From: Vermamoeba vermiformis
Lineage: Eukaryota
Assembly: GCA_045837725.1 (NCBI GenBank)
Contig: JBEWZL010000063.1
Coordinates: forward strand, 62,001 to 126,000
Length of the DNA stretch: 64,000 nucleotides
Reading direction: 5' to 3'
Below the pieces are notes generated by a model. That model was not told the DNA's origin, did no database searches, and saw only the letters and a list, made by a program, of their open reading frames with translations. Positions within the stretch are counted from its first letter, which is position 1. Each line of letters begins with the position of its first letter. Positions 37,907 to 45,859 of this stretch are shown in pieces. A program made the position numbers and the translations under genes.

Positions 37907-38383
37907 TGTGTGTGCTTCTGTTGAAAAAATTACAACTAAATGTTTTTCATAGCAAGGCCCATTTTTTTTGCTTGACGAGCACGTGCTCAACACGGCTTGC
38001 CAACTTCATACGGAAAGCCTTATGCACTGATTTTAATATTTCTTGAGAAGTTGAGTATTTTCCGGCGAGCGGAGTTGGGATTTGGGATTCACAAGATCGT
38101 GCATAAATAAATCTGTAATCATGCTCAGACCGCTTAGATATTGTGCCCTCATACACAGTTCATTTCGATTGACATTTTGGGCTTTTCTAATGTTTCCTGA
38201 ATTTCAGGGGATAAACTCAAACTTTCAGACACCAATAACTATCTTTTTTTCTCGTTTGCACAAATTTATTTCGCCGCTCTGCTTCAATAGACAACACATC
38301 TCGTAAATTATGATAAAAAGTTGCCGTAGTTTCTTACGGAATAATCAAAACAACCAAACTAAAAACAAAAACAATAGATCAAG

Positions 38384-39219
38384 ATGTACAATCTACTCTC
38401 CCACACCGTAACAGGTCAAACTATTCGCAAAGCGATCGATGAAAGAGTATCTTATGATGACATTAGAAAAGGCGTTACCTCCGTCGAAGGTAAACTGCAA
38501 CTTTTTATTTCTGATCTTGATGTTAACTCACCTGATCGACAGTTCAAGAAGACCTGGAACACGAATTTGGAACACCATTAAGATATAAAGAAGCCGAAAT
38601 AAAGAAAATGATGATTAAGAAGTTTATTGATAGTTTAACAAGTCGCATGGCCCAGATTGTCGAAGAAAGGAACTGGATGCTGCTCAATGATTACAATACC
38701 AAGGAGATCAAGGTATGACGAGTAATACCAGCAACGATTAGACCTTTAGACCCATTATTTCAATGATTTTTCCTTGGGATCTGTTGTGTGCACGCCGGCC
38801 AAACGGCATATTCTCGATTACTCCGTAAAGCAGTCCATTAATGATTCGATTTACTTCAGGAAATTTTAATCAAGGAGTACACCCGCGAAGAACACAAGAC
38901 TTTTATTGAAAGCAATGGCGACTTGCTCAAGAGGCTACTGGTCAAGATCTTTCTCAATCGTGTTGCGAAAGCTGCAAGACGTATAATACAAGAATACAGT
39001 ATTGTCACTGGTCGTCTGACCGGAGAGCAAGTTCAAGAAGAGCTCGAACGAAAGTACTTGGTCCCCATGAACACGTACAGGAACTTTTTGAACTTACTCT
39101 GCGCTCATCCAAACTCGGAAGTGGATGAGCTGATTGAACTCCATTCAGAAATGAAGTACCGAGCGCGAAGAACTGAGCGTCAGGAGCAAGAGGACAGCAC
39201 CGGATGCTCAATCATGTAA
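38384..39219 (+). CDS. Protein with three DEK-C-like helical repeats and a C-terminal CaaX box
   Basis: Three exons; repeats such as VTSVEVQEDLEHEFGTPLRYKEAEI and LTGEQVQEELERKYLVPMNTYRNFL; ends GCSIM*. Confidence 0.6.
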
Positions 39220-39860
39220 ATACTGCTTAAATTGTAAATATTTGCGAAACTACACCGAATTCTCGATAGTAATGTAATAAATAGCTTATTGTCAGTATAT
39301 AACGCTTATTTGAAGCAAGGCACGTGCCTCTAACTAGTTGCGAAGTGTCAAACGCGAGGAGTAACTACTAGCAGCTCCGACACGGGTTGGAAATGCCATG
39401 TCGGTAAGGATTATAAGATCGTACTTGCAAGAAATGGGTGTAAGGGTCGTAAACAAGTGCAACTGAGCTTAAGCCACGGAAACGGACTGATGCCCGGAGA
39501 TGGATGTCATTAACTTAGGCCTAGTTACAATAACAAGATAATCTATCTACTTAATTACTTCGAGACGTGTAGTCGACGTCGTTTCACGTGTTGGTGTTTG
39601 GTTTGAGCGGTCTGGTCTAAACATTATTGTGCCAGATTTCGTGTGAGAACAGCACGGAGAAGAGTGAACTTGGTTCTACTTCGCGTGAGTGCTTAATTTA
39701 ATTTTTAGAAGTAGAATAACAAGAAGGTGCTATTATATTAAATTGCACAATTAAAATATTCGAAGTTTTAGTTCCGTGTTTGACGCTGCAATATTGTAAA
39801 ATTAATTTAATTATTGTATAAATATTAATATTAACATTATAATATGATAGGCTATTAACC

Positions 39861-42800
39861 ATGGCGGATCGCGCATCTATGGCTAAATTTGAGGCGTTCC
39901 AAAAATCAAGACAAATTACAACCGGGAAAGTGACCACAACGGATTTCCTTGATGACAAACCAACGAAAAAAATTTCGTCAATTAGATTTTCAGATGACTT
40001 GACGGTAAAGGATGGCCAGAAAGTGACGCCGGAGCTGAGCCAACGAAAATTATTGAATTCTGTCGGTAACTCTCGCGAGCAAGTCGCAGGTAATTAGAAG
40101 TGTCCCATTGTGCTGTTTTCCATACGTAACAAGTAATTGCATCAATTTACTGCGATGAAGGGTCGCGAGATCTGCGGATCAGAAGTTCCGAAAATCGTAC
40201 CTGTTACGACTTTTAACTGTACTTTCGGTACTGATCTATCCGTATATGTAGCCCCATTTGAACTGCAAGCCAAAGCGTTTCAAAATTCTCCGACAATCGA
40301 CTTCGAGCACAAACTGCTGGATAGGTTCTACTACACCCTGAAGGTTAACTCAGCCACTACTTCAGCTAACGCACCGAACGCTGCTACTGATTCGTAAGTT
40401 GTACTTTATTTTCGACTATTATAGAAAGTACGTTTGGGACGCAATCACAATTGTACGGGAGATTCTTGCCAAATATGGACAAATATGAGTTCTATCGTAT
40501 ATTTTACTGAGACTAGGTATTTACATCAAAATTGGTCTATCTAACAGTTTATTTACAATTCAATCGCATAAGATTGTCTTACGGCTATTTATCCGAGGCG
40601 CCGTTACCTTCCAAAATTGTTTCGTGATCCAACGTTGCTAGTTGGCCATTACTACTAAGAAAAAAATGCGATATATGAGCTTCGACGATGACTCAAATAT
40701 CGCGCGAGCAGTTAATGAAGTTCAGTTTAAGTTCTTTCTTTGCCATGGACAACCATTGCTCAACTTTTACTTCAAACGCAGACCAGCCATTCAATCTTCC
40801 TTTGCGCGTCAAGTAAGCGCTTACAGTACTCGCACTGTAGGTAAAAAAGTTCGTTAAAATTTATTATGATTGGGAATGTCAGTTCCGAGCTGAGATTCTT
40901 CCAAAACGATTTCCAAAATTTACGCAGCTACGGAATATAGCCGAAGAAAACCAGATTTTTTTTTTTGGATCTCAAAATTTTCTTTGTGCGTACCTGACTT
41001 TTAGATCGTGCGCGAGTTGCTTTTGGAATATTTTATACTGAGTCAGTGCATCCTTCAACGATTTCCAAATCACTGGGTTCGGGGTTGGAAACTCTTCGCG
41101 TTGTTCGTTCACGAGATCTGTGGTCGAGATGGCCTCCGTTGAGTCTTCGCTGCGCGGTGATTCGAATGATTCACCACAAGATGGAGATTCTACAATATAT
41201 TCGTAGCTTGGGTGCGTGTACGGAATGATTTCGTTGCTGCTGATGATATTCTGAATAGTGGATTTGACATTATTTTGCTCGGCTATTTCTTCTTCGCCGC
41301 TATATTCTAGCTTCAGTCGCTTAAAGGGGTGCAATTCGAGAGATTCAATAACGTCGAACAGGCTTTCTGGTTCTCTTTTGCGCTTCCAACTTTTGGATGC
41401 GAGAGATTCGCAGTCAACAGAAGCCATCCCATTAAAATATGGATTGTGACAGGCGTGGTAGTAATCATAATAACTGATATAAGGAATTGCGTGATGATTT
41501 ACATCGCTTGTCCAATCCAAAGCGAATTCCTAGGGATGTAAGGATTAGAAATTGGATCTACTTACGTACTGTACTAAAGGTTAGTACTTACGGGACGAAC
41601 GGACTCTTGCTTAGTTCCATACATCGGCCACTCGACTTCTCGTGTTGTTCTTCCTTGAAGGAATTAATGCCAGACTAATGAATTAACTGTTTTCCAGCTT
41701 TTTCCGTTTCGGTAAAAAATCTCGTTTAATCTCGGCAGTATCCCTATTCAAACGTTTAATTTAACCAATTAAAGAACGTCCACACTTATAAATCGATTCC
41801 CACAAATTAAATATTAACGTATACTGTGGCAGACAACCTTCCGAGGATTGCTTCTCCGTAAAGCTCGTCGTAGATAAGCGGAACGATCAAAGGCTTGCCG
41901 AGATCTTGACTTCTACGCTGTCTGTCTGTTCTGTGGTACCAAATATCAACGTGCGGGCCTACATTATCGCGCAAGTCGTGGCTAGCAGCACCGGAGGAGG
42001 TTTTCTGTTCACGCCAGATCAGATCCGAAACTTATACTTGGCTTCTTTGGATGGTTTTAAAGCTCTGAAGAAGCCAAATGTAGGCATTGGAGAAATCGTT
42101 AGAGGTAATAATACCGTAAATAACGTAAGGCGATTGCTAATTGGAAAGTTTAGCGTGGAGCATTGCTCGGGCCCTATTATTTAAGTATCTTTGCGATCGC
42201 TTAGAAGTTCCTTGCAAAATTTCTTTGCGCGAAGTATCGCCAAGTTTCATGCCAACGCGAATCGGACATGGCATTGCATGGATCAGATCTGGCGACCGAT
42301 CATCAGTCGTCGACCTACTCGGGAATATTGGCAGCTTATATGAGGAAGATCAGGCGAGGTATTACGAAGAGGTAAGTTATAGATATTATTAGCTGATTTT
42401 GATGTATGGTGACATTTCGCTGTCGTCCGAGTTTACGAAGGCAGTCACTTTTTTCCGCAGACAATTATAGTTATTTCCTGCATTATTTATCAACACAATG
42501 ATCGATTAGTTTCATTAAGTAATGCCAGTAGGCACATCATAATAGCCAACGGTAAACTTTGCGAAGTTGGGCCGTTGTAGAATTCTTAAATGAAATTTCA
42601 TGGGACGATTACTTAACGCTGCTTTTCGCTAAACAATATCTTTTATCGATGAACCATCCTTAACGAGATTAATGTAGCTCGCCATCGAGGAGCTCGATGT
42701 ATCGAGAAGAACTCAACGCGAAGTCGCACAAGCAAAGCCAAAAGCAAATGAAACTAAGTCCTCGCTGAGATGGTTCGAAGAGATAGACTTTAGCCAATCT

Positions 42801-44182
42801 CAAGTTCAGCCTCTTACTTTACTTGGAAAAGGACGTTATGGCCAAGTCTACAAAGCCAAAGTCGGCAACTTCATCTGCGCCTTGAAAATTGTTAGGATGG
42901 ATTCAATGACGAAGGATGTCAAGAAGTCTATCCACAAGGAAGTATCGCTAATGAGGACGTTGAAGCACGAGAATATCGTCTCGTACTTAGGACAAGAGGT
43001 CGTTCATGAAAACGAGTTGCACATATTTTTGGAGCTAATAACGAAGCCGCTAGATAAGTTGGTCGATAGCATCAAAGCCAAAGAACGAACAGCGTTGAAG
43101 CGTAGCGAGGTAATGCTCGTGGCCAAGGCGGTTGTTTCGGCGCTGAAGTACATCCACAATCTTCCGTCGAGATTAATGCATCGAGATATTAAGGTAACTA
43201 TAATTATTATTTTACGAGCAAATTGGATTATCTTCTTTTTTTCTTGCTAGAACTATAAATTAAATCACACAGTATCTTCTTCAAATTTACTTAAATTGGA
43301 AATATGATCCATCTTTTCATCCATCGTCCCCAACGAGGCCAAAATTTGCTTTTCAGTTGGGCTTATCCTCATAACAATTAACGTGGCATTTTAGGCTCGT
43401 AATGTACTAGTGGAGGTCGACGACTCTGGATTCATAATTCAGGCGAAGCTCTGGTACGATTCCAAGTTTAATCACTATTATTCTAATTGTTTATTGCTTA
43501 GTGACTTTGGTTTGGCAACCGAGGTATCAAACGATAAAGAAAATCAGTTGGCCGTAGGAACTGCTCGGTGGTATGTTTCTGGGATCCAAATCCGGACCAC
43601 GTGGCTTATTTAAACAACGCTCTCCGTTCTGTTAATTATGCACATTAATTCATCTAATGAAATCGCCGTTACATACAATCCCAGTATTTAAGTTGCCTTA
43701 TTTATTAGGATGGCACCGGAGGTTCACGCAATGCAGAAATACGACGAGAAGGCCGATAGTAAGTCGATTGAAACCTTATTAAAAAAATAACATTTGGTAC
43801 TATGGATCCGTTATCGCTTCCCTTCCCATGAGCTCGAGGATTTCGGGAGATAGAACGGAAATTCGCGGCCATCCAAATTAAATTTATTTTATTACCTGCA
43901 TTTTAATCTGCCCGTAATTTTAACTAATTTTATTGCCTGATCGCAGTTTGGAGTTTTGGAATGCTGCTTTACGAACTGTGTACCATGAAATTGCCTTATC
44001 ACGAGATCTGCGTTCTTGACGTCAAGCAAGAGATAATGAAAGGGCGACCTATTGATTTAGAGTCAGTAAGTACTGACTGGCGCGATATTTTGGCAATAAT
44101 CGCGGAATGTACGAGATTCGATCCGAAGTTGCGACCAAGCGCCACAGAAATACTACACAAACTCGAGGATATGAATAAGTAG
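39861..44182 (+). CDS. EDR1/CTR1-type N-terminal domain plus TKL protein kinase
   Basis: EDR1-like IDFEHKLLDRFY / LVVDKRNDQRL..IAQVVASSTGG / RALLFKYLCDRLEVPC; kinase GKGRYGQV, ALK, HRDIKARN, DFG, GTARWMAPE, DIWSFG. Phase-2 intron 40394-41832 joins exons in frame. Confidence 0.9.
40693..41624 (-). CDS. Nested antisense gene: 236-aa protein with C-terminal lambda-repressor/CUT-like helix-turn-helix
   Basis: Exons 41624-41592, 41529-40994 and 40834-40693 with canonical GT-AG introns; KSLKDALTQYKIFQKQLAHDLKVSASTVSAYLTRKGRLNGWSAFEVKVEQWL; NLS-like KRKRE..KRLKLE. Confidence 0.8.
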
Positions 44183-44528
44183 AGAATTACCACAAATTAC
44201 GGGCCTGTCATACATATGAGTTGCCTTAATTGGGAAGGAGCGCTAAAAGATTCCATCAGAAACCGATCGGGTCATGGTACGCTTTTGTTAAAGTTGGCCA
44301 GTGACAAAACTAACTTTTGCTTGAAAAGGGCTTGGAAATGGAGTATTAGAAGTTGTCGGTGAAAGTGTCGTCGACGAGCAATTCAATGCCGTTTTGCTGA
44401 AACATTAATAATTCTCGCCGCTATCTCGAACACCACACATAAAAGGAAGTGATGGTAAGTAATATTTATTTAATCATACACTTCATACTAACCACTACTA
44501 CAGCTTACTAAACCGCAACGACGTTCAA

Positions 44529-45247
44529 ATGCGCTCATCTGGCAACCAAATCCGCCGATCAGCTCGTCAAGCCGGCAAGAAACAATGCTCTTGCCACAAT
44601 GATAATTTCTGTCAACCAATTAGACGTCGAGCCAACAGACGAAGGGCCCAAAACCGCCGCCGTGTTCGCATCCCCGGCGCAATCCGCTGGACTGAGCGAA
44701 CAATTCGCATTCACAACGAGCTTGGCACCTTGCAAGGGCTTGTGTCTGAGAAGTGCCGCCTAACTGCCCGCAATTGCGAAGAAACTCGTCGAAAGATTGC
44801 GCGACATCTGTCTGACTGCCTTGTATTTCGTGGCAGCCGCCAAGTAACGATGAAATTATGGGTAAGTGGCATAAAAAAATTGTATAAAAATATTAATCAG
44901 TCTAATAGGTCCCAAGTTCCGTATTTTCCAACATGTTTTTGCCACATGTGGACGAAGACGATCTGAAATGGACCATCACGAAGCCGAAGGCAAAAAACGG
45001 TATCGTCAAGTTAAGCACAGCTACAGTGCGTGGTACTTTGTCTGAAGCACAGTTCCGCAGTGTGTTCCAGACGGGTTACTCTCGTAACCATCTGGATGAC
45101 CAAAACCTGGCTTATCATGCCAGTATTTTGTTCGATCAAGAGAATCCGTTCAAGTTTCGCTATAATATTGACACTGGTAACCTTGTTATCAATTGTAAGT
45201 ACCACGTATTCAGAATTGACGTGGATGGGTTGATGATCGACATTTAA
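44529..45247 (+). CDS. Hypothetical protein, Arg-rich N-terminus
   Basis: Two ORFs joined in frame by GT-AG intron 44862-44908; AATAAA downstream; no family recognised. Confidence 0.6.
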
Positions 45248-45859
45248 TTGTACGTTGAGCATTATTGTATTGACAAGCAATAAATAAATAACAATTAAAA
45301 ATATTATGGATGTCTTAATTGTTGAATGGAGATCTGGGTGTGATCCGGGCCACGATCCGGCACTTTTTAAAAAGAAAGCAAATTTGAAACCTTTTATAGG
45401 CCCTCATCAAGACCTCTTGGTAGTACTACTTCAGCTGTACCATTTGTTTGAGTAATATTAGTTAAATAAGGCAGAATTTTGCCTTGACTTTTTTCAGGCT
45501 ACCAGATTAGCAACACCAGACATGCCTAAGCGACCGAAACAATAAAATACCAACATCGATGATAGTAACAAAGTAAGTACTTAGTCAGTTAAATACTTTA
45601 ACAAATTAGATCCTGGATCCAAATTAAGTAAACACGTCACGAGACATAACACACCCACCCCAAAATTGGTGCAAGCCGCGTTACTCGTAGCGTTAGATTT
45701 TATTAAAATTATTAATTCCAAATTTCTAAAGAAAGGGGATTGTATTGTTCCGCAATTTCGTTTTGCCGCAAAACCGATTTTTCGTTGTCGTACGAAATGT
45801 GGATGTAAAACAGCACAAAAGTCATTGATTCTCAGCTGTTGTCATCTTATTAAATAGCT

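Follow-up and report, generated by a model that had tools for sequence, protein, structure and literature searches.

The locus raises the question of whether a complete gene for a helix-turn-helix (HTH) protein lies, in antisense orientation, inside a long intron that splits the EDR1 domain of a protein kinase gene, and, if so, what that gene is and how it came to be there. We examined it in a stretch of 64,000 nucleotides of Vermamoeba vermiformis DNA, called the window below, the positions of which are used throughout. The answer that we hold to be probable, though well short of certain, is that this gene, which probably still functions, is nothing out of the ordinary within a family of four-helix, stand-alone HTH proteins of the Vermamoeba lineage, and that it is an intron-retaining copy sitting in an existing kinase intron.

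The host gene, on the plus strand, was modelled with nine exons that encode an open 596-aa protein, with an EDR1 domain ahead of a kinase domain of Ser/Thr type. When metagenomes were scanned with its exon 5, there were 149 pattern matches, of which one locus was confirmed, L046; it is syntenic with the window (it has the same upstream gene) and about 76% identical in nucleotide sequence in the coding parts. The 5' untranslated exon ends at 39684, as given by contig joints, and coding exon 1 (39861-40089, with the ATG at 39861; contig joints and gene model) is 56% identical to L046. Exon 2 (40252-40393) holds the start of the EDR1 domain; its upstream joint is 40087-40250 (cut +2), contigs end at 40393, and identity to the L046 exon is 49%. 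It is followed by host intron 2 (40394-41832), a phase-2 GT-AG intron of 1439 nt. The middle of the EDR1 domain is encoded by exon 3 (41833-42104; PF14381 positions 64-144, E 0.031; 54% identity to L046) and its end by exon 4 (42154-42371; PF14381 positions 146-202, E 1e-5; contig joints). Exons 5-9 (42678-43193, 43395-43453, 43502-43570, 43709-43758 and 43947-44182; contig joints and gene model) encode the kinase domain, in which the Gly loop and the HRD, DFG and APE motifs were identified and which matches Pkinase in Pfam at E 2e-20.

Comparison with L046 indicated that the exons on either side of the 1439-nt intron belong to one gene. The preliminary description had the kinase exon ending at 40393 rejoin in frame at 41833, and this was borne out: the 596-aa model is open, and L046 joins the same exons across an intron at the same phase-2 position, 285 nt long, with one in-frame acceptor and no HTH match. 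For the donor after 40393, the only alternative in-frame acceptor among the acceptors found is at 41893, and reading through the intron meets 26 stops. The EDR1 motifs said to flank the intron were recovered downstream (64-144 and 146-202), while exon 2 scanned alone against Pfam gave no match; its L046 orthologue, however, matches PF14381 positions 3-34 at E 0.005, below the cut-off. The two L046 exons flanking the intron match model positions 3-34 and 63-117, both below the cut-off, and each EDR1 piece of the host protein likewise scores below it.

Transcript-like contigs, which lack introns, were available from four coded runs, three of them presumed to be RNA. Contigs of runs X1 and X4 end the kinase exon exactly at 40393, the bin depths corresponding to 144 letters at the depth of each contig. 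Record 13 of X4 has 21 letters beyond 40393 and is not among the partly placed records, and the depth of 0.57 in bin 41738-42004 of that run equals 18 letters at the depth of record 13; from these figures we deduce that the record runs on from 40393 into that bin. The joint 40393-41833 itself was absent among the listed joints (15 of 18), so that the reads support it indirectly; this is the one point in favour of an arrangement with no nesting, in which the kinase halves would be separate genes flanking an ordinary gene. Against such an arrangement stand the L046 joint with its single in-frame acceptor, the EDR1 positions 3-34 and 63-117 on opposite sides of the intron and the extension of record 13, and we regard it as the most improbable of all the readings considered here. 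The 13 GT-AG joints among those listed at 38-46 kb span 47-306 nt, and an intron of 1005 nt is present elsewhere in the genome.

The preliminary description called the host protein a TKL kinase, a label that the matches did not establish: the N-lobe exon favours Pkinase and the C-lobe exon PK_Tyr_Ser-Thr, and the best PDB rows are CDKs, at no better than E 1e-12. The position of the EDR1 catalytic Cys motif, which we take to map to window 42154-42170, is occupied in the alignment by three different residues, Ser in the window gene, Thr in that of L046 and Leu in that of L044; these peptidase-like EDR1 domains may accordingly be inactive. L044 (G000:C266:461000-470900) is the second EDR1-domain gene of the genome; its N-terminal region is long and its kinase domain looks degenerate. 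As a guide to the age of the intron it was rejected, being too distant, with matching EDR1 segments that have no intron between them. The order of domains in the host protein, EDR1 and then a Ser/Thr-type kinase, resembles the EDR1/CTR1/ARMC3 peptidase-like and kinase fusions described in passages of PMC10318531 (PF14381), from which it differs in being short (596 aa) and divergent, with EDR1 pieces below the cut-off.

Several features of the surrounding DNA were recorded. At 44182-44380 the host kinase gene ends right beside, or within, the start of the gene that follows on the plus strand, and run X2 contains a single non-canonical joint, 44377-45747, with a 21-letter side, which is probably an artefact. 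The second intron of the upstream gene (38713-38859, plus strand; L046:800-939) is strongly conserved in both organisms, with several invariant runs of 11-21 nt, whereas the kinase introns are not conserved between the window and L046. This upstream intron gave no Rfam match and its folding was not unusual (z 0.3); it is a candidate intronic non-coding RNA or regulatory element. An Rfam scan of 38000-44500 returned one match, at chance level.

Inside host intron 2, on the minus strand, the preliminary description had placed an intact three-exon gene of 236 aa, and its exons (41624-41592, 41529-40994 and 40834-40693) were indeed found to be open, the complete coding region (41624-40693) lying wholly within 40394-41832. 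Exon 1 (41592-41624), with 11 codons and a phase-0 intron after it, is together with the start codon the least certain part, other ATG/donor pairs being open as well; in the paralogue at L045, exon 1 has 19 codons and ends at a phase-0 intron, a structure to which the database proteins P0153 and P0154 correspond. Exon 2 (40994-41529) encodes an acidic, Ser-rich region and HTH helices 1 and 2, together with two basic clusters (KRKR ... KRLK; 41311-41385) that form a candidate bipartite nuclear localisation signal and also occur in the closest paralogue. Intron 2 of the nested gene (40835-40993; 159 nt, phase 2) falls within the Ser codon that opens the recognition helix, the same position as in 20 paralogues. 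Exon 3 (40693-40834) encodes helix 3, an R-x-x-G-W loop, helix 4 and the stop codon, and an AATAAA on the minus strand (40548-40553), 140 nt past that stop codon and still within the host intron, is a candidate poly(A) signal.

The HTH domain (residues 160-219; 40747-41085, split by the intron at 40835-40993) scores 73 bits against the family profile and agrees with the consensus at 16 of 20 positions, the helix-2 Gln and the G-W motif among them; the protein ends 17 residues past it. That this C-terminal domain emerges only on splicing was confirmed with a profile of 40 database domains, which gave 77.0 bits for the spliced form, 38.2 for the best unspliced frame and 7.2 for the best unrelated frame in the window. 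A Pfam scan of the two long nested exons found no family, an ESM Atlas search with exon 3 alone gave no usable match, and a word-based protein search with exon 2 gave 39 candidates, none at E<=1. The same kind of search with kinase exon 3, in longer proteins, gave 223 candidates and likewise no match; the database thus covers the locus poorly, and a missing orthologue of the nested gene is weak evidence. Contigs of X1, X2 and X4 cover the kinase exons and have zero depth over 40403-41737, at depths of 3-11 and with contigs that cannot show absence, and reads of run X6, from a diverged relative, likewise have zero depth there. At such contig depths, zero coverage of this interval neither shows silence nor supports expression. 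As judged from its reading frames, splice sites and profile score, the nested gene is real and intact.

The assembly scanned for family members comprises 43.3 Mb. Searches of this genome with nested exon 3 retrieved 14 loci and with an intronless paralogue 26, and the family has at least 28 paralogous loci, the nested gene being one of them. The suggestion of an unusual protist transcription factor is thus supported as regards a protist transcription factor, and not supported as regards a one-off protein. In a splice-join test of 29 loci, in which candidate joins were pre-filtered by position and motif and the best join was scored against the profile built from 40 database domains, a phase-2 intron in one and the same Ser codon, where helix 3 begins, was present at 21 loci (the nested gene included). 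Of the rest, six were intronless, one was unresolved and one was a non-member. For nine intron-bearing paralogues, database proteins at 93-98% domain identity read through the joint, which confirms the splice independently.

The paralogues are 40-57% identical, and the best identity of the nested domain to any of them is 47%. P0012, the orthologue of a paralogue on contig C91, aligns to nested residues 24-234 with 26.5% identity and E 8e-18 among 150 proteins, and the C91 paralogue has the same three-exon layout as the nested gene, with intron phases 0 and 2. The nested gene is thus a genomic duplicate; an origin as a retrocopy was rejected, because the parental introns have not been lost and both match the phases of the paralogue. 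Several paralogues occur in tandem clusters (C152, C282, C232 and C208). PHD-type fingers are fused to the domain in P0011 and P0034, above the cut-off, and in P0028, below it. P0012, the closest full-length homologue, is among the six of 39 homologues that pass the Pfam HTH_3 (PF01381) cut-off, and the intronless paralogue L005 scores 19.1 against a gathering cut-off of 23. Other observations on the family are a paralogue at L052:5537-6541 (G000:C232) with a 1005-nt intron at the family site, no clear gene inside it and a PHD-finger ORF upstream on the same strand; an ENT-domain ORF that precedes an HTH paralogue in the same orientation at L066:2594-4785 (G000:C56), possibly an ENT-HTH fusion; and P0016 (1024 aa), in which a domain of this kind, in more divergent form, is repeated several times in tandem.

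The protein that was folded is not the nested protein; it is L005, whose domain is 45% identical. The L005 model (pLDDT 85.7) has four helices. In VIA-align two domains are tied at the top, the POU-specific domain of Oct4 (Z 9.2, rmsd 2.1 over 64 aligned positions) and the N-terminal domain of MuB (Z 9.0, rmsd 2.5 over 62), followed in lower rows by Brn-5, the HNF6 and SATB1 CUT domains, ClgR, MBF1-type chains and lambda cI. For a helical domain of this small size such Z values are modest, but every top row in VIA-align and Foldseek belongs to one superfamily. The MuB N-terminal domain is the best match both by sequence (E 0.013) and in Foldseek (TM 0.76, E 0.06), and the ESM Atlas placed L005 with HTH_3/XRE-type clusters at 0.94. 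The preliminary description had likened the domain to lambda-repressor-like HTH domains, and the fold matches of L005, with the MuB N-terminus and POU/CUT/HNF1 domains at the top, agree with it. By its profile score and the predicted fold of the paralogue, the nested protein is assigned to the lambda repressor-like HTH superfamily.

With the POU-specific, CUT and HNF1 POU-like domains (Oct4, Brn-5, HNF6, SATB1 and HNF1A) the family shares a four-helix lambda-repressor-like fold (Z 7.0-9.2), the Gln that opens helix 2 and, in some members, weak HNF-1_N and CUT matches. It differs from them in showing no homeodomain across the 39 scanned members, in a variable recognition-helix Gln, identities of about 12-20%, and a family-specific R-x-x-G-W loop and helix-4 Glu/Trp. 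The phage Mu MuB N-terminal domain (2MQK) and the XRE/Cro-C1 HTH (HTH_3) are the nearest by sequence and Foldseek, six of 39 members passing HTH_3; unlike them, the family has no AAA+ ATPase or transposase, is about 21% identical to MuB, and has spliceosomal introns, basic clusters, low-complexity flanks and PHD fusions. No homeodomain was found among the Pfam matches for the two long nested exons or the 39 homologues (best five each). According to a review, the POU domain has not been found apart from a homeodomain (PMC4901127). With none seen here, the nested protein would work like a POU-specific or CUT domain and yet not be a member of those classes.

Gln is present at the start of helix 2 in 63 of 67 family domains, the nested one included. 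The base-reading Gln that opens helix 3, found in 17 of the 67, is replaced by Ala in the nested protein. Passages of PMC1976457 describe how the helix-3 Gln reads adenine in POU, CUT and lambda proteins and how the Q402A change in SATB1 lowers binding about 50-fold. With Ala at this position, the predicted DNA binding of the nested protein may be weaker or use other contacts. The PHD-type fingers of P0011 and P0034 and the paired basic clusters would point to nuclear regulators, and by analogy with the related families we infer DNA binding and a regulatory role for the HTH family.

The earlier suggestions on the origin and role of the nesting did not fare as well as those on its structure. 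The nesting is not shared by L046, the sole relative locus found, whose 285-nt intron holds no gene, and coupling of regulator and kinase by antisense transcription gains no support from this comparison. When the L046 intron was searched for remnants of the nested gene, matches were no better than with shuffles, and control intron 1 was also blank; the kinase intron sequences have diverged past recognition, so that HTH remnants in L046 would be invisible. With only one relative locus, gain and loss are not polarised. In a search of 24 regions for other nested paralogues, no HTH gene was flanked on its two sides by the same Pfam family (130 of 217 ORFs; blind to hosts with no Pfam match), and several neighbours of HTH paralogues end with a complete domain terminus.

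The arrangement resembles published cases. In Drosophila roughly one gene in ten takes part in a nested structure, and the nested genes are usually inserted duplicates, mostly on the opposite strand, faster-evolving and less co-expressed with their hosts than neighbours are, according to passages of PMC5174743 and PMC3814207. Like the opposite-strand intronic genes of Drosophila, the present one is complete, has its own introns, belongs to a duplicated family and is absent in a relative; it differs in lying in a compact amoeba genome, where neighbouring introns measure 47-306 nt, and in a host intron that interrupts a Pfam domain. By this comparison the nesting fits the published pattern and looks incidental and lineage-limited.

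We propose that a genomic, intron-retaining copy of the family came to lie in the existing kinase intron 2 in one lineage, gain rather than loss being the presumed direction. The kinase would be spliced across the nested gene as one gene. The nested gene would have a short promoter of its own, either confined to the roughly 200 nt that separate its ATG from the kinase acceptor or extending into exon 3 of the kinase; its transcript could end inside the host intron. The copy may be tolerated because the opposite orientation hides its splice sites and poly(A) signal from the kinase transcript. Its protein would most likely enter the nucleus via the basic clusters and place helix 3 in the DNA major groove, as in the POU-specific, CUT and lambda cI domains, and the acidic, Ser-rich N-terminal part would regulate transcription. 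The only likely link to the kinase would be transcriptional interference, favouring expression at different times. The nearest paralogue is only about 26% identical and the grouping with it is weak, which speaks against a very recent duplication, although rapid evolution or loss of the parent copy would reconcile the two.

Apart from separate kinase halves, three other readings were weighed against this one. An old nesting might have been kept by selection because it couples regulator and kinase, through antisense mutually exclusive expression or feedback, and have been lost in L046. The distance of the nested gene from any paralogue (best domain identity 47%) and the length of the L046 intron, which at 285 nt exceeds most introns nearby, are in keeping with this; the HTH gene is, however, absent from one syntenic relative, no orthologue was found among 150 of 162 matches, compared with 14 of 27 own-genome domains that have one at >=93%, and published nested pairs are less co-regulated than neighbours (passages of PMC3814207). 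We consider it unlikely. To the same degree improbable is a silent or decaying duplicate, that is, a young pseudogene in the intron. The lack of coverage in four runs, three of which cover the kinase, points weakly in that direction, as does the lack of an orthologue among the same matches, while the three open exons with canonical splice sites point the other way, as does the retention of 16 of 20 consensus residues in a protein that differs from its nearest paralogue at about 74% of positions. This suggests purifying selection on the HTH domain.

A mobile element, or its domesticated MuB/XRE-like DNA-binding gene, inserted in the intron is a less probable source than either. It had been put forward in the preliminary description, and it draws on the MuB N-terminal domain being the best sequence and Foldseek match and on a family that is dispersed and present in giant viruses. 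The locus itself speaks against it: the 1439 nt of host intron DNA are single-copy in the genome, the best flanking inverted repeat (15/21) was reached by 93 of 200 shuffles, the introns are retained, and no transposase or integrase was found in the host intron or among the 130 of 217 candidate ORFs scanned in 24 regions around family members. The paralogues, moreover, are 40-57% identical with an ancestral intron in common, tandem clusters and PHD fusions. For the domain family as a whole, a distant origin in a phage or mobile element is conceivable, as is a prokaryotic sister family.

The range of the family was assessed with a profile search of 1.84 billion representatives, which returned 150 of 162 matches; among these, the match covers the full domain in 41 proteins. 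An organism name was attached to seven of the 30 representatives consulted: four were EukProt Vermamoeba vermiformis, two Clandestinovirus and one Faustovirus. Two own-genome domains are 94% identical to EukProt V. vermiformis proteins. Among the 150 of 162 matches, an orthologue at >=93% was present for 14 of 27 own-genome domains and absent for 13, the nested one included, so that the missing orthologue of the nested gene is not special. The viral members are P0043 and P0080 (Clandestinovirus QYA18375.1 and QYA18590.1) and P0112/P0194 (Faustovirus QKE50350.1 and AMN83674.1), and both viruses infect V. vermiformis, according to passages of PMC8383183 and PMC7290515. In the domain tree (67 rows, 65 columns; rows under 55 bits, L025 and L036, left out), the bootstrap of which was not settled and which is mostly unresolved, the three viral rows fall at three places and the Faustovirus row lies inside a host paralogue group with no enclosing branch starred; the viral copies may still have a single origin. 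The nested gene groups weakly with its nearest paralogue in this tree (82/10).

Scanning IMG/VR with the Clandestinovirus member P0080 gave 85 pattern matches and none confirmed, and a phage collection scanned with P0012 gave two weak matches (E 0.06). The existing label of one Clandestinovirus record is that of a helix-turn-helix regulator, JGI labels several family members XRE-type, and the virus annotation tables may name the genes. The term 'HTH' is absent from the main text of PMC8383183; 'helix-turn-helix' and 'HTH' are absent from the main text of PMC7290515, and 'nested', 'helix-turn-helix' and 'XRE' from that of PMC11702301. In listings and abstract openings of freely accessible articles no description of the HTH family or the locus was found, and the family is large and apparently undescribed. 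Most members score below the Pfam cut-off and a conserved intron splits the domain, which makes the family easy to miss.

The nesting is a known, common arrangement with no sign of functional coupling and, being apparently lineage-limited as well, is a curiosity on its own; the main interest lies in the HTH family and its viral copies. A bolder reading, possible but doubtful in our view, would make this a major Vermamoeba-type transcription-factor family, a stand-alone counterpart of the animal POU-specific and CUT domains with about 30 paralogues and a specificity code at the tip of the recognition helix (P, Q, E, A, T); Faustovirus and Clandestinovirus would have acquired it in two or more independent captures and would use it to reprogramme transcription in the host, and the nested copy would be stage-specific and switch off the EDR1 kinase in antisense. 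Giant viruses and intracellular bacteria both live in Vermamoeba, an amoeba whose transcription-factor repertoire is poorly described. The viral copies are testable candidates for the alteration of host nuclear transcription by Faustovirus and Clandestinovirus, and a stand-alone POU/CUT-like domain in an amoebozoan bears on the origin of those animal domains.
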